Below, in pieces: positions 9,817 to 18,796 of a stretch of DNA of 64,000 nucleotides. The DNA is from an uncultured archaeon (GTDB lineage: Archaea > Thermoproteota > Nitrososphaeria_A > Caldarchaeales > Wolframiiraptoraceae). Within the stretch, counting starts at the first letter, position 1, and each line of letters begins with the position of its first letter. The DNA lies in assembly GCA_938083505.1 (NCBI GenBank), contig CALKCF010000002.1, positions 96,001-160,000 on the forward strand, in the 5' to 3' direction. The notes under the pieces were generated by a model, which did not search any database, was not told the DNA's origin, and saw only the letters and a list, made by a program, of their open reading frames with translations. Made by a program: the position numbers and the translations under genes.

Positions 9817-11229
9817 TTATGAGCCCCACTCTGTGTGGAAAGTTCCAGACTTGTCGACCCTCTCGTATCCATGCGCACCGAAGCGGTCCCTTAAAGCCTG
9901 TATGAGATTTGCTGGCAGACGTTCGCGTCTAAAACAATCGAAGTAGTCTAAGGCAGAAGATATTGCAGGGCAGGGGATGCCGGTAAGCTTTGCCGTACTT
10001 ACGAATGACCTCCATTCCGCTTGTCTATCACATAACTCCTTTGCGTATGTAGTGTCAAGTAGAAGATTCACAAGCTCAGGTCTTCTGGAGTAAACGTCCA
10101 TTATCATGTTAAGCAACCTCGCCCTTATGATACATCCGCCTCTCCATACTTTGGCCACTTCCCACAACTTTGGGACATAGCCAAACTCCTTTGATGCCAC
10201 AGATATTAGGGACATTCCTTGAGCGAAGGCTACGAGCATTGTGCAGTGCAACGACGACCTTGCTGCACTTATAATAGACGATTTGTCTACATTAGGTTTT
10301 ACATCCATCATACATTTTATGATCTTCGATGCCGTAACCCTTTCTTCTTTCAACGCAGACATGTTTCTCGCAGAGACCGCGGCGTCAATCGTGGGCACAG
10401 GTACGCCTAAGTCCATTGCCGTCTGTGACGTCCACTTACCAGTTCCCTTCTGGCCTGCTTTATCCAATATTAGCTCGACAAGCGGTTTCTTAGTCTCATA
10501 ATCAATCTTACTCAAAACCTCAGAAGCTATCTCTAAAAGGAAGGAGTTTAGCTCTCCGGCGTTCCAATCGGCAAATATCTCAGAAATAGTTAGAGCATCT
10601 AACCCGAGCAACGTCGTAAAGGCATCATAGACCTCTGCTATGGCTTGCATTATTGCATACTCAATACCGTTGTGCACCATCTTCACGAAGTGACCGGCAC
10701 CACCAGGCCCCATGTAACCATAGCACGCATCATCCCCAACCTTTGCGGCAATCTTTACGAATACGGGCCTCATGATTTCCTCAGCCTCAGACGGGCCACC
10801 AGCCATTATACAAGGCCCCTTCAGCGCACCCTCCTCGCCACCGCTTATTCCAACACCCATGAAATGTATACCATGCTCTCCCAGCTTCTTCATTCTTCTT
10901 TCGGTATCTTTGAAGTACGAGTTACCACCATCTACTACTACGTCCCCCGGCTCAAGCCATACCATTAGCTGGCTAAGAAACTCATCAACAGCCTCACCAG
11001 CTTTAACCATCAATATTATCCTGCGGGGCTTCTCAAGAGATTTAACAAAGTCTTCTATAGAAAAGTATGCAAATATGTTTTTCCCCTTTGCTCTCTGTTC
11101 CATGAATGTTTTGGTCCTATCTGCAGACCTGTTATAAACGGATACCACGAACCCTTTATGTTCGATGTTGAGGGCAAGGTTTGCACCCATGGTTGCAAGT
11201 CCTATGAGCCCTACGTCTGACTCTCGCAT
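9817..11229 (-). CDS. gnd: 6-phosphogluconate dehydrogenase, decarboxylating, long NADP-type
   Basis: GLATMG Rossmann, YNRS, DGGNS, GISGGEEGA, KMVHNGIEY, GQKGTGKW, WRGGCIIR, RDRFGAH. Confidence 0.96.
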   Translation of the reverse strand: MRESDVGLIGLATMGANLALNIEHKGFVVSVYNRSADRTKTFMEQRAKGKNIFAYFSIEDFVKSLEKPRRIILMVKAGEAVDEFLSQLMVWLEPGDVVVDGGNSYFKDTERRMKKLGEHGIHFMGVGISGGEEGALKGPCIMAGGPSEAEEIMRPVFVKIAAKVGDDACYGYMGPGGAGHFVKMVHNGIEYAIMQAIAEVYDAFTTLLGLDALTISEIFADWNAGELNSFLLEIASEVLSKIDYETKKPLVELILDKAGQKGTGKWTSQTAMDLGVPVPTIDAAVSARNMSALKEERVTASKIIKCMMDVKPNVDKSSIISAARSSLHCTMLVAFAQGMSLISVASKEFGYVPKLWEVAKVWRGGCIIRARLLNMIMDVYSRRPELVNLLLDTTYAKELCDRQAEWRSFVSTAKLTGIPCPAISSALDYFDCFRRERLPANLIQALRDRFGAHGYERVDKSGTFHTEWGS

Positions 11230-11325
11230 AAATATATTTTTTTATCAAAGTAACAAAAAAGCTTATCGTATAATATATCAGTGGGGTTAACATAAAACTA
11301 TAATTCTGACCTTTCCACATGAATT

Positions 11326-12492
11326 TTGAGAAACATGGGTCAAACTGTTAGTAGCTTAGGTTACATCAACCAGATATTCCAAAATGTGGAGCTCGTTGAC
11401 GTGCCGCAACAGGAGAATTTCTATTACAGTCTTATGAAAAGCGGGGTGATAATTCCATCGGCTGAAGGAAGGTCTAAAGGCGCGCTAAGCATAGTGTGCA
11501 GCGAGATGGCCAAGATGAGGAAGGGAAAGATAATCGTGGACAGGAGCGACCTTGGCTTTCCAGGTAGGAGCATTTCTGAGGCGGCACCAATCCTGAAACA
11601 CAGATATGGTTATGTAAGCTTGCTAATAAACAGCGGCAGCGGTAAATCACTCATGCCCCTTATAGATGCTCAGAGTATGGCCCTTCATATAGAAAAGACG
11701 GGAGATGTCAAAAACTTTAGCATAGATGTCATGACTTCGGATGCCAACTCACCAATAGGGAAGCTCGGTGAAAAATATGGGAACGTCCTCATAATTAAAG
11801 GACGAGGGGAGAACAAGCGAACGGAGGGTGAAGCAAGGGAATTCCAATCCCATGGCATACTGGAGGACGTATTCATTCTGGGCAGCATGGTAATGCTTTA
11901 TGCAATGGCGGAGGCCATGAATGACGATAAGCCGGCTGAGAAGATACAGGATTATGTAAGCCCACTTTCGGTGGAGATATGTAAGATGGTGGACGACGTT
12001 ATAAAATCAAAATTCTTTGAATTTTTGGTGAATAATCTAGAAGAGAGGAAGGCCTGCTTCTTTGCTGGTCTCGGTAGCGGTCAGGAAGTTGCCAGAATGA
12101 CTGCAGTAAGGGTTGGACATGTAAAAAGAGCGATAGGTGACCACGTATACGTTGCGGGCGAGTCAAGCACACCAGCTCCAAGGGCTGGCGACATTTTGAT
12201 AGTTATTTCTCAAAGTGGTGAGACTGAGATAGTCCTAAGCTGGTGTAAGAACTTCAAAAGGCTGGGCGGCAAGATTGCCGCAATAATTGGGACGCCTGGT
12301 TCAACGCTACAATCGATTGCCGACGAATCTTATGTAATAAAGAGTGAAAGGGTTCCTGGCAAACCAAGCGACTTTTACGTCAAGGCTGCGTTCGCGCTTA
12401 GCCCTCTGCCCATATACTTGGTCAGTCGTATTGAGGAGCGTGGCCTGAAGTTACCAGAATACATACTAAAATGGTACCATTCAGTAATGTGA
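11326..12492 (+). CDS. Tandem SIS-domain sugar-phosphate isomerase (HxlB/PHI-like repeats)
   Basis: Repeat 1: SAEGRSKG..NSGSGKS..TSDANSPIG. Repeat 2: AGLGSG..GESSTP..GDILIVISQSGET..STLQSIAD. Confidence 0.75.
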   Translation: MRNMGQTVSSLGYINQIFQNVELVDVPQQENFYYSLMKSGVIIPSAEGRSKGALSIVCSEMAKMRKGKIIVDRSDLGFPGRSISEAAPILKHRYGYVSLLINSGSGKSLMPLIDAQSMALHIEKTGDVKNFSIDVMTSDANSPIGKLGEKYGNVLIIKGRGENKRTEGEAREFQSHGILEDVFILGSMVMLYAMAEAMNDDKPAEKIQDYVSPLSVEICKMVDDVIKSKFFEFLVNNLEERKACFFAGLGSGQEVARMTAVRVGHVKRAIGDHVYVAGESSTPAPRAGDILIVISQSGETEIVLSWCKNFKRLGGKIAAIIGTPGSTLQSIADESYVIKSERVPGKPSDFYVKAAFALSPLPIYLVSRIEERGLKLPEYILKWYHSVM

Positions 12493-12493
12493 G

Positions 12494-13528
12494 CTACTCC
12501 GCAACTTTTCTTATGGGTTTATCTAACATTTCATGGAACTCTCTCATCCAAGGCAATATATCCCTTCCAAGAATGCTAATGAACTTCTCCTCGTCCGGGC
12601 TGGCGCTGTGTATGTACACTATATCGAGCCTCAGCTTAAGGAATTCTGCAAGCTCCTTGAATATATCGTCCGGGTCCGTTGTTATGAGCCAAGTTCTTTT
12701 GATTTTTTCTATCTCCTCTGGACTGACATTTGCCTCCAACTCTCTAGGGTCGTAGAGCTTTTCTCGTTTTTCCCTCGGTATCGCTGTTGATGCCCAGAAA
12801 AGTGCAGAGTTTAACGCTCTATCGTAATCCACGTCGTATGAAACTTTGAATTCCATAGACTTTACGAGTGTTGACGGATCCCTTCCGGCCTCTATCGCAG
12901 CCTTCTCCATGGCACGAACTATCTCGTAATATTTCTCAAGACCCCTAGGATTTATCAGCATACCGTCGCAAAGCCTTCCGGCGATCTTCGCGACCCTTGG
13001 ACATGCCGACGCTACGTATATCGGTATCTTCATCTTTGGCTTTGTATAGAGCTTTGCGTTCCTCAGTCTGTAGTACTTTCCCTCAAAATTTACGAAATCA
13101 CCTTTCCAGAGCTCCAGTATTATCTTGATAGCTTCTTCAAGCCTATCAACCTTCTCCTCAAAGCCTGGCCATTCAAACCCCAGAGGTTTCTCGTTCATCG
13201 CATGACCTGTACCAACAGTCAGGAACACCCTACCAGGATACATATAGTCTAACGTTGCAAAAGCCTGGGCAACGATTGCCGGATGATACCTGAACATCGG
13301 TGTGGTTACAGCAGTGCCTACTTGAACCCTCTTTGTTCTTTCTGCCACCGCTGCAAGCCAAACCCACGGAAAACCTGACTGTCCGCCAGTGTCACGCCAT
13401 GGATGGAAGTGATCGCTCGTAGCTATTATATCAAAACCCGCGACCTCTGCTCTGACTGCAAAGTCCAGCAGACGTGTCGGATCATATTGTTCCTGTGCCG
13501 CCCAATAGCCTAACCTGAGTGTCCTCAT
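12494..13528 (-). CDS. F420-dependent sugar-6-phosphate dehydrogenase-like LLM oxidoreductase (Fgd family)
   Basis: GY..QEQY, SDHFHPW, TPMFRYHPAIVAQAFATL..YPGR, EFKVSYD, FWA...DP, W...DPD as in Fgd. Confidence 0.8.
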   Translation of the reverse strand: MRTLRLGYWAAQEQYDPTRLLDFAVRAEVAGFDIIATSDHFHPWRDTGGQSGFPWVWLAAVAERTKRVQVGTAVTTPMFRYHPAIVAQAFATLDYMYPGRVFLTVGTGHAMNEKPLGFEWPGFEEKVDRLEEAIKIILELWKGDFVNFEGKYYRLRNAKLYTKPKMKIPIYVASACPRVAKIAGRLCDGMLINPRGLEKYYEIVRAMEKAAIEAGRDPSTLVKSMEFKVSYDVDYDRALNSALFWASTAIPREKREKLYDPRELEANVSPEEIEKIKRTWLITTDPDDIFKELAEFLKLRLDIVYIHSASPDEEKFISILGRDILPWMREFHEMLDKPIRKVAE

Positions 13529-13632
13529 ACCTGCCTTACTATGAGCGAGTCAGACCTATTTAGTCTTGCTTATAAACTTGGCCAAATAATTAATATGCCG
13601 CTAAAAATGAGCTACTTGAATCAGGTGGGTCT

Positions 13633-14289
13633 ATGTTCGTGTTACTTTCGCATAAACTCAGCACCGCAACGCCTGTATATGCCAGGGGCCCAAGCCTTAC
13701 ACTGAAGCCCTTGAAGCAAATAAGCAAGGGCGACAGCAGTAACAGCTACCTAATAGAAATACCAAACCATTTGGGAACACATGTGGATGCGCCTCGGCAT
13801 TTCGATCCTTCTGGGCGCTCTATAGCGGATTACGGGATAGAAAGTCTAACATTTAAAAAACCGCTATTGCTTAACATACCGAAGCAAGATTCGGAGCTGA
13901 TTATGGCCGAAGATTTGGAAAGGCATGAGGACAAAATTATAGAGGCAGACATACTTCTAATAAAGACCGGTTTCCAGAGGTTTAGGTCATCTGACCCCCA
14001 AAGGTACAGCATGCACAACCCAGGCCTTTCCTCCAATGCTGCCAGCTACGTAGTTAAGAACTTTCCAAACCTTAGGGCCCTAGGTTTGGACACGATTTCC
14101 TTATCTTCTGTTGACCATAGAGAGGATGGTAGGCTTTCGCATAAGATATTGTTGAGCGGTCGGGATTTCTTTATTATAGAGGACATGGACCTTTCGAAGC
14201 TTACTGAAAGTCCAAAGATGGTGATGGTCGTACCACTCTTTATCGAAGGTATCGATAGCGCTCCTTGCGTCGTAATTGCCGAGGTTTAA
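13633..14289 (+). CDS. Cyclase family metal-dependent hydrolase (KynB-like)
   Basis: HLGTHVDAPRHF signature, GLDT.S, SHK.LL, IIED, DSAP. Confidence 0.9.
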   Translation: MFVLLSHKLSTATPVYARGPSLTLKPLKQISKGDSSNSYLIEIPNHLGTHVDAPRHFDPSGRSIADYGIESLTFKKPLLLNIPKQDSELIMAEDLERHEDKIIEADILLIKTGFQRFRSSDPQRYSMHNPGLSSNAASYVVKNFPNLRALGLDTISLSSVDHREDGRLSHKILLSGRDFFIIEDMDLSKLTESPKMVMVVPLFIEGIDSAPCVVIAEV

Positions 14290-14423: not shown

Positions 14424-15821
14424 ATGAGACCGGTCATCCTCGACTCAACGTTACGCGAGGGGCAACTTTATAGGATATTTAGTCGTGAAGTCAACAAACA
14501 GATAGCCGTTCAGCTGGCAGAGATAAACATTCCAAGGATAGAGCTAACGGTCGATTATCCACCTAGGACCACATATGAGGATGTTGCATGCATCGTAGAT
14601 GCATTGGGTTCTTACGACGTGGAGATCGTGATGCACGGCAGGGCTTACCAGAGGGATATAGAGGCAATGAGCAAGTACGACATAGATGGTTGTGCCCTTT
14701 ACCTTGCACCGACGGACATTCATAGAGAGTACAAGCTTGGCGGCATATCTTATGAGGATGCTGTACGGAGGATGGAAGAATCGATAGAATTGGCAAAATC
14801 ATTTGGCTTCAAGTACATAAGAGCAACAGTTGAGGATGCAAGTAGGTTTTACTTAGAAGGCCAAGCCGGTATGGAAAAACTTTTAAAACTTATTGACTTA
14901 TTGGGTGATGTTGGTGCAAGTTTAGTAAGCGTACCGGATACAGCCGGCATGTTATCTCCGACTCAAGCCAAAGACTTCGTGTCAAAGATAAAGAAAAAAT
15001 GCAAGACCCCAATATCGTGTCATTTCCACAACGACTATGGTTATGCTTCAGCGAACACGGTCGAGGCAGTAGCCGAAGGTGCTGATGAGGCGCATGTATG
15101 TATACTTGGAATCGGTGATAGAAATGGAATAGCGGATCTTTACGAAGTCATTGCAGGGTTAGAAGATCTATACAACATAAACACAGGTGTGAGGCGCGAG
15201 GCTATTTCTAAGCTCTATGAAAAATTTTCAAAGCTTACAGGCATAAGACCCTACTTTTCCCATCCACTTTCGAAAGAAGCCAGAACTGTCAGGGCAGGTG
15301 TGCATCAATCCATGGTCATTAAGATGCCGAAGGGTTATGTCCCTGAAAAGAAGCTGATATATGACTTTAACGGAAGTCTTATATTTGAAGCTACTCCTTA
15401 CTTGAGTCATAAAATTGTTGAAAGGCTACTGTCGAAGTATGGAGTTAAGGACGATGAGGTGAGAAAGATTACAGAGATTCTCGCCTACAGCGCAAGTAGC
15501 AAAGGAAGAAAGCTCCTACCGTCAGAAGTTAGGGAGATCCTATTGAACGCTGGCATATCAGTCAGCATGGAAGAAATCTCGAACATGTTCGGAACCGAGA
15601 GCGCCTACATCCTGATAAGGCTGAAGCCCCAGTTCCCGGCATCAAAGATAATAAGCGAGCTTATAACATGGGATGATGTAGAAAGTATCGACGAAGTTTA
15701 TGGCGATGTGGATATGATAATAAAGGCGAAAGTGTTGTCAGGTGATGATAACGTGGTGTCCCGTCTTAAGAAGACTTTTTCCGGGGTTGTCGAAGACGTT
15801 AGGGTACTAATCACCGACTAA
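14424..15821 (+). CDS. Homocitrate synthase/LeuA-family (DRE-TIM) enzyme with C-terminal RAM (Lrp/AsnC ligand-binding) domain
   Basis: DSTLREG, HGRA..RDIE, DTAG, HFHND.G, AGVH; C-terminal EVYGDVDMII RAM motif. Confidence 0.8.
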   Translation: MRPVILDSTLREGQLYRIFSREVNKQIAVQLAEINIPRIELTVDYPPRTTYEDVACIVDALGSYDVEIVMHGRAYQRDIEAMSKYDIDGCALYLAPTDIHREYKLGGISYEDAVRRMEESIELAKSFGFKYIRATVEDASRFYLEGQAGMEKLLKLIDLLGDVGASLVSVPDTAGMLSPTQAKDFVSKIKKKCKTPISCHFHNDYGYASANTVEAVAEGADEAHVCILGIGDRNGIADLYEVIAGLEDLYNINTGVRREAISKLYEKFSKLTGIRPYFSHPLSKEARTVRAGVHQSMVIKMPKGYVPEKKLIYDFNGSLIFEATPYLSHKIVERLLSKYGVKDDEVRKITEILAYSASSKGRKLLPSEVREILLNAGISVSMEEISNMFGTESAYILIRLKPQFPASKIISELITWDDVESIDEVYGDVDMIIKAKVLSGDDNVVSRLKKTFSGVVEDVRVLITD

Positions 15822-16699: not shown

Positions 16700-18796
16700 T
16701 CAATCTGTAAGCTCGTAAATGTATACGTATGCATAACTCCTATATGGAGGGCTGGACGAATAGATGAGCTTGAAACCACTTACGTTAGGCTCCTCGTAAT
16801 AATGTGTAACAGCACCACTTTCTGTGCGTGGTTTGTAAGGTATAAGTTGACCGAGTAATGTTTCCTTCCAAAACCTATCCGTAGCGCCCACGGTTAGTGG
16901 TTTTGTTGGGTCATAGTAGTCTCTTTCGCTGAAGCGCTCTATACCGAGCTTTTGTGCTTCTTGATTTGCTATTCTTAGCATCCAGACCCATTTTCCCTCG
17001 TCACCGTAACCAAGCAACCTTGGTAAATATGTGCCAGCATATGACACAACTTCGTGCGTTACGAATATTAAAACATGAGTTACACCATATTGCCTCAGTA
17101 TCTGAGCAGCCTTTTCAGGCGGCGACATGAATGCAAGTGCCAAAACCCCAATCTGCGTACTATTCGTTGTTGAGTTATCGGCAAGCGTGGTCTTGTTTCC
17201 CATTACGGTAATCCAATAACCATAGTCCCACCATGCAGCAACGACTGCGTTGTCTGGAAGATTGTCTCTCATCCATGAGAGTGCGTTTATCCAGTCAGGT
17301 ATGTTTGCCGCAACCGGTAACGTGCTTTGTATCACCGTAGGAGGAACGTATGCCTGGTCTATTGGTGATAATCTCGGTAAGCTTCTACCAATAAGAAAAG
17401 AGGGTGCTAACGGAGCTGTCAACATCAACACAACAAGCAGGGGCGTCACAATCGCGTATTCTATCGGAACTCTTTCTCCTTTTCTCATTTTAACTCTGCT
17501 TGTTATTACGTTCCCAAACGAGTCAAATATTCTACCGATAGCGTATCCAGAAGTTATTGCAATGAACGGTGCAGCTAGCGCAGATAACCTAACCATAGAT
17601 GCCGCGAAGTATACACTAAAGATGGTAAGAACAGATATGAATATTGCTTCATCGGTTCCTTTCTTTAATAGATAATAAATTCCCACAGGAACGAATACCA
17701 AGAAGAACCCTAAATCCATGAACATCGTTGTCCACGTACCTAACTGGTTCTCCGCAACAGATACTAGAATAGGTAATTCGCCTCTCATACCCGGCAGTAC
17801 TGTTGAAAGGAACTTAGTAGCCGGAAGTGCGGCCAAGATACCGAGCGATACCAACAGAACTATTGTCGTAATCCTGGGCACGAAACTCCTTAGGAATTTA
17901 TTGCCGAAGTTGCTCGAGAGTTCGAAGACTACGAGTAGAAAAAGGACCACCAGCCCACTTATTATAGTTATGTCATTTAAGTAACCTACACCACCTAACT
18001 TAGGGACGGATGTTGCTATCGTCGATGCTAAACCAAATGTTATCGAGTAAGACACTAGAAGTTCTCTTCTATACCGCCCTATGAATGAAAGCAACAACGT
18101 TATTATGTGTATAAACATGAACGGGAATTTATGAGCACCCCAGCATGTCGCAACGTATCCTAAGAAGAGGCCAGATAGGACAGAAAATATAATCACATGT
18201 TTGAGGCTCTTCCCCTTTTTGATGGCATAAACATACATGAGAAAACTTATCAGCATAAATGGTATGGAAATGCTCTCGTCATCGAACCAGCCTGCATGTG
18301 TCCTGCTTATGTTTGCATTGCTTATCGCTAAGGCGAACGCTGCCAATAGACCGGTTGATTTCCCACCAACCTCTTTACCTAGGAAATAAACTACGAGTAC
18401 AGCTACCACAGACATTATCGCAGGGAAGATGACGGCCAGTTCCAAAAGGTCGACATGTATACCTATTGATGATAAGGAGAGATAGATGAACGCCAGCAAG
18501 AAAGGAAGTCCTGGGTAGAAAGTCTTACTTACAAACTGTCCATAAGGATACCAACGTTCCGTATCTATCCAAGAGAAATACTCAACAAAGCCTGACCATC
18601 CTCTTTCGACGATAAATTCTGCTTGGCGGAACTGCATCCATGGATCAAACTCTGACAAAAGAGTACCCCACCTGATCGGCAGCATCCTGATAGTGAATGC
18701 AATTACCAAAATAGACATCATAGCTGCGATCTCTAGGACGATAGGTTTAAACGTGAGAAATGAACGGATACTGCTTTTAATTTCCATAAACTTCAC
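16700..18796 (-). CDS. aglB: Oligosaccharyltransferase STT3/AglB
   Basis: EFDPW, WYPYG..YPG, AGWFDDE, SVAEN, WWDYG, DNST; many TM helices; ATG at 18787 is the more likely start. Confidence 0.96.
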   Translation of the reverse strand: MKFMEIKSSIRSFLTFKPIVLEIAAMMSILVIAFTIRMLPIRWGTLLSEFDPWMQFRQAEFIVERGWSGFVEYFSWIDTERWYPYGQFVSKTFYPGLPFLLAFIYLSLSSIGIHVDLLELAVIFPAIMSVVAVLVVYFLGKEVGGKSTGLLAAFALAISNANISRTHAGWFDDESISIPFMLISFLMYVYAIKKGKSLKHVIIFSVLSGLFLGYVATCWGAHKFPFMFIHIITLLLSFIGRYRRELLVSYSITFGLASTIATSVPKLGGVGYLNDITIISGLVVLFLLVVFELSSNFGNKFLRSFVPRITTIVLLVSLGILAALPATKFLSTVLPGMRGELPILVSVAENQLGTWTTMFMDLGFFLVFVPVGIYYLLKKGTDEAIFISVLTIFSVYFAASMVRLSALAAPFIAITSGYAIGRIFDSFGNVITSRVKMRKGERVPIEYAIVTPLLVVLMLTAPLAPSFLIGRSLPRLSPIDQAYVPPTVIQSTLPVAANIPDWINALSWMRDNLPDNAVVAAWWDYGYWITVMGNKTTLADNSTTNSTQIGVLALAFMSPPEKAAQILRQYGVTHVLIFVTHEVVSYAGTYLPRLLGYGDEGKWVWMLRIANQEAQKLGIERFSERDYYDPTKPLTVGATDRFWKETLLGQLIPYKPRTESGAVTHYYEEPNVSGFKLIYSSSPPYRSYAYVYIYELTD

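Follow-up and report, generated by a model that had tools for sequence, protein, structure and literature searches.

In Haloferax volcanii, the oxidative pentose phosphate pathway relies on the glucose-6-phosphate dehydrogenase Azf, which is an NAD-dependent short-chain dehydrogenase, and on a 6-phosphogluconate dehydrogenase (6PGDH). Outside the haloarchaea, pentose synthesis that proceeds without the ribulose monophosphate (RuMP) pathway or transketolase is only patchily known in archaea. Here, we analyzed a stretch of 64,000 nucleotides (hereafter called the window; G000:C2:96001-160000) from the genome of an uncultured archaeon (G000; 1.15 Mb in 10 contigs, 98.5% complete). At positions 9817–14289, the window carries the genes for a 6PGDH (gnd), a protein with two tandem SIS domains, an oxidoreductase of the LLM family that resembles Fgd, the glucose-6-phosphate dehydrogenase dependent on F420, and a cyclase-family hydrolase. 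These four genes probably form a co-inherited module for an F420-type oxidative pentose phosphate branch, an interpretation in which we have moderate confidence. The module would share with the haloarchaeal pathway an archaeal oxidative route to ribulose-5-phosphate with a first enzyme other than Zwf, but this enzyme would be an LLM protein using F420 instead of Azf, and the 6PGDH is assigned to the long NADP type.

The closest published description concerns a related Aigarchaeon of the same taxonomic order, for which an oxidative pentose phosphate pathway was predicted with an F420-using glucose-6-phosphate dehydrogenase and a 6PGDH, the gluconolactonase being reported missing (Beam et al., ISME J 2016, PMC4681859, citing Spang et al. 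2012). That prediction was made at the annotation level, and the accessible passages of the paper list F420 as synthesized and do not mention the cyclase and tandem-SIS partners, an altered active site, or a replacement of 3-hexulose-6-phosphate synthase (HPS) and transketolase. An earlier note on this DNA had put forward an F420-dependent oxidative pentose phosphate module. Its functional reading survives in outline, but the pathway idea itself is already in print, since the Aigarchaeota paper of 2015/16 already describes an oxidative pentose phosphate pathway with an F420-using glucose-6-phosphate dehydrogenase and no lactonase (PMC4681859); novelty was overstated, and membership of the oxidoreductase in the Fgd family did not hold either (discussed below). 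The "missing gluconolactonase" has been remarked upon in genome papers since at least 2012–2016. A 2021 review of F420 lists Fgd for "Thaumarchaeota?", and copies of K15510 have been discussed in Gagatemarchaeaceae. In the literature, we found nothing on Bathyarchaeota with an F420-dependent oxidative pentose phosphate pathway and nothing on the PDB entry 9HAV. As far as we found, the new elements of the present locus appear to be a lactonase candidate, an obligatory tandem-SIS partner, a separate LLM clade with a swapped residue pair, the pattern in which the module replaces HPS and transketolase, and an order-wide lack of the synthase for FO, the head group of F420. The value of the cluster lies in testable enzyme candidates rather than in a new concept, and three of them are clonable, namely the LLM protein, the cyclase, and the tandem-SIS protein.

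The nearest public records are metagenome-assembled genomes (MAGs) of Candidatus Terraquivivens (Wolframiiraptoraceae, Caldarchaeales), an archaeon of hot springs and vents, with 92–97% identity of the LLM protein. This genus is placed within Caldarchaeales, formerly "Aigarchaeota" (PMC9246946). No RNA data set is listed as containing this DNA, and the one DNA run that contains it may be its source. The earlier note had described four genes on alternating strands, and we confirmed their positions as follows:

9817..11229, minus strand: gnd, a long-type NADP-dependent decarboxylating 6-phosphogluconate dehydrogenase of 470 amino acids (NF006765, TIGR00873, Pfam NAD_binding_2 and 6PGD)
11230..11334, no strand: gnd/SIS intergenic region, flanked by divergent genes and containing AT-rich, TATA-like blocks kept within the genus
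11335..12492, plus strand: tandem-SIS sugar-phosphate isomerase-like protein of 385 amino acids (SIS and PHI profile matches, AlphaFold and Foldseek)
12494..13528, minus strand: LLM oxidoreductase resembling Fgd (TIGR03557 family), 344 amino acids, a proposed F420-dependent hexose-6-phosphate dehydrogenase
13529..13632, no strand: divergent intergenic region common to the LLM and cyclase genes
13633..14289, plus strand: cyclase-family (PF04199) metal-dependent hydrolase of 218 amino acids, a candidate 6-phosphogluconolactonase

The genes are arranged as two head-to-head pairs (gnd/SIS and LLM/cyclase) that meet tail to tail, with a single base between the stop codons of the SIS and LLM genes. 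When five Terraquivivens loci were aligned by eye, the blocks AAAAAGCTTATCG and ATAAAACTATAATTCT were found to be conserved in the gnd/SIS intergenic region, and these TATA-like blocks may act as promoters; no motif common to the gnd/SIS and LLM/cyclase intergenic regions was seen in the same loci.

Co-occurrence was analyzed in 26 Caldarchaeales genomes. Orthologues of the LLM protein (identity at least 65%), the tandem-SIS protein (at least 56%), and the cyclase (at least 44%) are confined to an identical set of 14 genomes, and a long gnd is present in all 14 and in two more. The cyclase is the most tightly linked partner of the LLM protein: the two genes adjoin head to head, with a gap of approximately 100–170 bp, in every one of the 14 genomes, and the same arrangement is found in the metagenome loci L045-L051. 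For gnd, adjacency is seen in two genera as well as in L045-48, and for the SIS gene, in two genera as well as in approximately 20 Bathyarchaeia loci.

To survey gene order, 38 loci retrieved through the LLM protein were searched by tblastn with the proteins of the window. Four Terraquivivens records show synteny over the whole neighborhood of eight to ten genes. The order of gnd, cyclase, LLM, and SIS differs in Aigarchaeon SKYB10, the metagenome contigs L045-48 have the order cyclase, LLM, a small ORF, gnd, and a LarA_C-like gene, and further metagenome contigs have cyclase, LLM, and SIS. The tail-to-tail LLM/SIS pair is shared by the approximately 20 Bathyarchaeia loci (with identities of 71% and 60%, respectively), Pelearchaeum, and UBA141. 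All four Bathyarchaeia genomes with LLM and SIS genes also contain a long gnd, which is located 10–30 kb away. In a 251-genome sample of the phylum, which does not include the LLM-bearing Bathyarchaeia, LLM orthologues with an identity of 65% or more are found only in Caldarchaeales. In the genome G023, an LLM paralogue (48% identity) adjoins a cyclase paralogue (32% identity). Because the association recurs in other lineages, as judged from gene order, co-occurrence, and the Bathyarchaeia, the clustering of the four genes is not due to chance. The neighborhood survey that the earlier note had suggested reveals a conserved and co-inherited cluster.

A comparable arrangement is present in a Nitrososphaera sp. 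MAG (L037:6283-11892), in which genes for a phosphoglucomutase/phosphomannomutase (PGM/PMM), an LLM protein (46% identity), RpiA, a PF04199 cyclase, and a short 6PGD run in one direction. We regard it as an oxidative pentose phosphate cluster made of paralogous parts in an ammonia-oxidizer lineage and as an independent parallel to the present module.

Two further arrangements were observed around LLM genes. In the locus L032, the LLM gene and a short 6PGD gene lie approximately 1.6 kb apart. In two lineages (L061:5909-6262 and L045:9042-9374), a thioredoxin-fold ORF of 110–117 amino acids with weak glutaredoxin/ArsC matches is located between LLM and gnd; this ORF is not in the cluster of the window.

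The distribution of the module was compared with those of the other pentose routes. Strong matches to HPS, the RuMP enzyme, occur in 10 of the 26 genomes, four of them belonging to Terraquivivens. An unfused HPS scored over or near the cut-off in four of the seven Terraquivivens genomes (G001-G004), and three of the four genera that have the module lack HPS. HPS was not found in the present genome, which has lost it or never had it. A true transketolase is present in six of the 26 genomes, none of which has the module. Ten of the 14 module genomes, including the present one, have a match to neither HPS nor transketolase, and one genome that is 93% complete (G011) has none of the three routes. 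In the present genome, zwf was not found and rpiA is present. In this genome, the module seems to provide the sole route to pentose phosphates, and it is predicted to be the only detectable one in nine of the relatives searched as well. Because it always occurs with a 6PGDH and stands in for RuMP and transketolase, the module is best read as a supplier of ribulose-5-phosphate.

Gnd scored 634 bits against NF006765 (cut-off 413) and 617 bits against TIGR00873 (cut-off 427), and its two Pfam domains are full length (NAD_binding_2 at 5–164 and 6PGD at 179–468). As it exceeds both equivalog cut-offs, we assign it to the long NADP-type 6PGDHs, in agreement with the earlier note. The sequence reads GLATMG...VYNRS, which we take to be the NADP 2′-phosphate motif known from the sheep enzyme.

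The LLM protein scored 251.4 bits against TIGR03557, the subfamily related to F420-dependent glucose-6-phosphate dehydrogenases (cut-off 210.4). Its closest solved relatives are FGD1 from Mycobacterium tuberculosis (Mtb) and Rh-FGD1 (291–295 bits, end to end), followed by the F420-dependent alcohol dehydrogenase Adf (255 bits). The three basic residues of the FGD1 phosphate pocket are reported to be invariant among active Fgds, and mutagenesis has borne out their role (PMC5352752). We compared the active sites by pairwise alignment; the multiple alignment of representatives is fragile near position 195, a point at which Fgd carries an additional residue. His40 and Trp44 of the FGD1 catalytic set are kept in the LLM protein and are invariant in its clade. 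Two of the three phosphate-pocket positions remain basic, with Arg195 and Arg255 in place of Lys198 and Lys259 of FGD1, and the loop near position 255 is also basic (Arg252 and Lys254). Among 73 LLM orthologues with at least 59% identity, His109, Arg195, Arg255, and Glu256 are fixed or nearly so. In contrast, LLM proteins at or below 55% identity have Glu109 again and have lost Arg195, and the adjacent clades lack the Arg195/Arg255 residues at the phosphate positions. In a quick maximum-likelihood tree of 65 sequences with only one named Fgd reference, the LLM clade is monophyletic (SH-aLRT 100) and nested among archaeal LLM proteins without a phosphate pocket. A phosphorylated substrate is therefore plausible for this clade, but its phosphate pocket may have arisen separately from that of Fgd.

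The cyclase scored 86.6 bits against PF04199 (gathering threshold 23.1). Its HxGTHxDxPxH metal motif is intact, the downstream His/Glu ligands are present, and His46, His50, Asp52, His56, His170, Glu183, and Arg118 do not vary among 112 homologues. Of the solved structures, the nearest are metal-dependent hydrolases, including kynurenine formamidase (4CO9 and 4CZ1) and isatin hydrolase (5NNA), which share the PF04199 fold, the metal site, and the ligands. However, the similarity to these solved members is low (34–48 bits), and the genomic context is sugar-phosphate rather than tryptophan metabolism. The opening of a cyclic amide by isatin hydrolase would be chemically close to the opening of a lactone. 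No match to the 6-phosphogluconolactonase pgl (TIGR01198) was found in this nearly complete genome, as the earlier note had supposed of canonical lactonases in general; the lactonases of the SMP30, YbhE, and amidohydrolase types were not searched. The cyclase, which that note had named as a speculative substitute, is adjacent to the LLM gene in 14 of 14 genomes and is linked to an LLM gene again in the Nitrososphaera cluster, in keeping with the suggestion. Distant homologues of the cyclase also occur in sugar-related gene neighborhoods, which counts in favor of this role. We tentatively designate it as a candidate 6-phosphogluconolactonase, with a probability slightly short of even.

An assignment of the cyclase as an arylformamidase (kynurenine formamidase) was rejected, because it scored 46 bits against TIGR03035, for which 223 bits are required; the label "arylformamidase," which appears in some sources, is unsupported. 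Homologues with 41–46% identity are also found within CMP-sugar/glycan biosynthesis clusters (L056, L057, and L058), together with genes for CTP_transf_3, a 2-hydroxyacid dehydrogenase, HAD, an epimerase, and methyltransferases, which represent a second context for this PF04199 branch.

The ORF of the tandem-SIS protein opens at a TTG at 11326 (11326–12492, plus strand), but the ATG at 11335, which yields the 385-residue length of most homologues, is likely the real start. Pfam detects only the C-terminal SIS domain, and residues ~220–340 match SIS and PHI (6-phospho-3-hexuloisomerase) models below their cut-offs. An AlphaFold model calculated with 33 homologues (pLDDT 86, pTM 0.89) was matched over its full length by Foldseek to two-SIS-domain proteins at TM ~0.5–0.6, so that the designation "tandem SIS" in the earlier note is correct. 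The relatives include the isomerase domain of GlmS (1MOQ), GlmD (2CB0), archaeal GlcN6P deaminase, and AgaS-like isomerases. The Ser/Gly-rich phosphate loop is kept in both halves (NSGSGKS and SQSGETE). The C-terminal domain aligns with PHI (MJ1247, 1JEO; AF1796, 1VIM) and contains the GE(S/T)xTP motif, but the score against the PHI model TIGR03127 is 78.6 bits (cut-off 160) and covers the C-terminal half only, which is outside PHI membership. Unlike PHI, the protein is twice as long and has no HPS partner that we found in this genome, and unlike GlmS, it has no glutaminase domain. Because PGM and RpiA occupy the Nitrososphaera cluster, we read the SIS protein, by analogy, as a putative isomerase at the entry of the module or, less likely, at its exit.

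Two other roles of the SIS protein were ruled out. It is not the sole phosphoglucose isomerase (PGI), because a PGI/phosphomannose isomerase (PMI) over the TIGR02128 cut-off is encoded at G000:C2:84012-84944, 12 kb upstream of the window; a classical PGI (PF00342) was not found. Nor is it a substitute for RpiA, as rpiA is present in 25 of the 26 genomes.

From these observations, we infer the substrates, the cofactor use, and the lactonase activity of the module. The LLM protein would oxidize a hexose-6-phosphate, most likely glucose-6-phosphate, at C1 and transfer the hydride to F420, giving 6-phosphogluconolactone. The lactone would be opened by the cyclase-family metal hydrolase to 6-phosphogluconate, which the long Gnd would convert by oxidative decarboxylation to ribulose-5-phosphate and NADPH. 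RpiA, encoded elsewhere in the genome, would then yield ribose-5-phosphate. The tandem-SIS protein would supply the module as an aldose/ketose isomerase of hexose phosphates (fructose-6-phosphate to glucose-6-phosphate or a related isomerization), and F420 would be built by CofC, CofD, and CofE from imported FO. The joint proposition is bolder: that the cyclase is the missing archaeal lactonase and thereby a new activity of its fold, that the LLM protein is a glucose-6-phosphate dehydrogenase with a swapped His/Glu catalytic pair whose phosphate pocket arose independently of actinobacterial Fgd, that the SIS protein is a new dedicated hexose-phosphate isomerase, and that the module is the sole pentose source of cells unable to make FO and dependent on scavenging it. 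We hold this combination as a possibility with considerable reserve. If the LLM protein is a glucose-6-phosphate dehydrogenase, it would be a second, separately evolved, and thermophilic F420-dependent sugar-phosphate dehydrogenase, which would be of interest for F420H2 regeneration in biocatalysis.

Several observations weigh against the proposed pathway, and we gather them here. Against TIGR03554, the Fgd equivalog, the LLM protein scored 310.9 bits, which is below the cut-off of 420; Microbacterium Fgd reached 463.8 bits and archaeal paralogues without the phosphate pocket reached 262–298 bits, and we count the LLM protein no better on this model than these pocket-less paralogues. The score against TIGR03885 (FMN "revert") is 250 bits compared with 251 bits against TIGR03557, and such scores do not separate FMN from F420 use. 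In the tree, a split with SH-aLRT 99 lies between the LLM clade and the top scorers of TIGR03554, including Microbacterium Fgd. In the active site, the catalytic pair Glu109 and His260 of FGD1 is swapped to His and Glu (Glu256 in the LLM protein), and Arg283, the third position of the phosphate pocket, is replaced by Thr279, with Lys277 nearby. Because of the swapped pair and the lost arginine, the substrate or the mechanism may differ from that of Fgd. The term "Fgd-like" used in the earlier note is correct for this protein, but its membership of Fgd proper fails every sequence test. The protein also differs from actinobacterial Fgd in its setting, namely an archaeal host in which FO synthase was not found and the cyclase and tandem-SIS proteins as partners. 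The two have the LLM TIM-barrel family and the proposed reaction in common.

The other members of the module raise difficulties as well. No precedent for a lactonase in PF04199 was found in the literature, and no cyclase orthologue was found in the four Bathyarchaeia genomes that have LLM, SIS, and gnd. Matches to the TIGR02128-related PGI/PMI are present in all 26 Caldarchaeales genomes, and a feeder isomerase therefore seems redundant, which leaves the strict linkage of the SIS and LLM genes without an explanation. The two roles that the earlier note had proposed for the SIS protein, a supply of glucose-6-phosphate or a link to RuMP, stay candidate roles only, with an archaeal PGI/PMI present and HPS not found in this genome.

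The supply of F420 belongs to the same list. The genes cofC, cofD, and cofE are over their cut-offs in this genome, and the cells therefore probably handle F420; cofE is over its cut-off in 22 of the 26 Caldarchaeales genomes. In contrast to these parts of the set that the earlier note had singled out for checking, searches of this genome recovered neither cofG nor cofH (FO synthase), and none of the 26, several of which are nearly closed, has a cofH over the cut-off. It therefore seems that these archaea can complete F420 but lack the means to produce its head group. FO is made from an intermediate of the riboflavin pathway. In Calditenuis, F420 is listed as synthesized and riboflavin as not, according to the accessible part of the report (Beam et al., PMC4681859). 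On these two grounds, uptake of FO appears to be the simplest reading, and the presence of cofE without FO synthase across the order suggests cross-feeding of the cofactor in hot-spring communities.

Near the cof genes, a nitroreductase-family gene (207 amino acids) overlaps the start of cofD (G000:C6:132398-135260; L054:8898-11760) and recalls the C-terminal domain of FbiB. A LarA_C-like gene of 415 amino acids is located just upstream of this pair, and a shorter LarA_C-like gene follows gnd in other lineages (L045-48 and L061).

Among the alternatives to the proposed pathway, the best surviving one keeps the module but changes its first substrate. The SIS protein would make or remove the real hexose phosphate of the LLM protein, which would not be glucose-6-phosphate, in a hybrid route; candidates are a PHI-type isomerization of 3-hexulose-6-phosphate and fructose-6-phosphate, or a specificity for mannose- or fructose-6-phosphate like that of bacterial FSDs, among which broader sugar-6-phosphate ranges are known (PMC12384609). 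This would account for an LLM active site unlike that of Fgd (E109H, H260E, and R283T) and for a SIS gene that tracks the LLM gene in 14 of 14 genomes despite the universal PGI/PMI. The PHI-like C-terminal domain of the SIS protein (79 bits with TIGR03127, and the GE(S/T)xTP motif) points in the same direction, as do the HPS-bearing Terraquivivens genomes G001 and G004, in which the search detected no canonical PHI and the best PHI-like match is to the tandem-SIS protein. However, no genome has the module without gnd, and the product must accordingly end up as 6-phosphogluconate. The tandem-SIS gene persists in genomes without HPS, and since HPS is absent here and in three of the four module genera, a PHI reaction would have no partner there. 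In addition, the Nitrososphaera cluster has PGM and RpiA in place of SIS, which fits plain glucose-6-phosphate. We consider this alternative unlikely.

A second alternative is that the LLM protein does not depend on F420, or is a reductase in unrelated chemistry, and that its link to gnd reflects a shared regulon or a historical accident. The failure to find FO synthase in the 26 genomes, the equal scores of TIGR03885 and TIGR03557, and the nesting of the clade among LLM proteins of unknown substrate are in its favor. Nevertheless, the TIGR03885 score is far under the cut-off of that model (250 compared with 399 bits), and the F420-finishing genes cofC, cofD, and cofE are present here, with cofE widespread in the order. 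If no pathway were shared, it would be difficult to account for the co-occurrence, the adjacency, and the distribution complementary to HPS and transketolase, and we regard this alternative as quite improbable.

The weakest alternative, which we judge very improbable, takes an unphosphorylated sugar as the substrate, with the LLM protein as a glucose (aldose) dehydrogenase, the cyclase as a gluconolactonase, and gluconate phosphorylated elsewhere for Gnd; it could draw on the loss of the pocket residue Arg283 and on a distant cyclase homologue located between a sugar (MFS) transporter and an enolase-superfamily (MR_MLE) dehydratase, near a GMC oxidoreductase, in an apparent cluster for non-phosphorylated sugar acids, but Arg195, Arg255, and the basic loop (Arg252 and Lys254) are fixed at the Fgd phosphate positions, the SIS partner has a sugar-phosphate-binding fold, the Nitrososphaera parallel includes PGM, and the gluconate kinase step is unsupported, gluconate kinase not having been searched for.

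Two genes near the module were also inspected. An HMGL-like gene of the isopropylmalate/homocitrate/citramalate synthase type (window positions 14424–15821) flanks the cyclase gene; it scored below every equivalog cut-off, and its synteny is limited to the genus. A gene for an AglB/STT3 oligosaccharyltransferase is located at window positions 16700–18796, and another is found at L059:8999-11143. In the window and likewise in the genus g6, in which the SIS gene sits apart from the rest of the module, a distance of 2.5–4 kb separates the AglB/STT3 gene from the tandem-SIS gene, and this proximity may be a remnant of the ancestral gene order.

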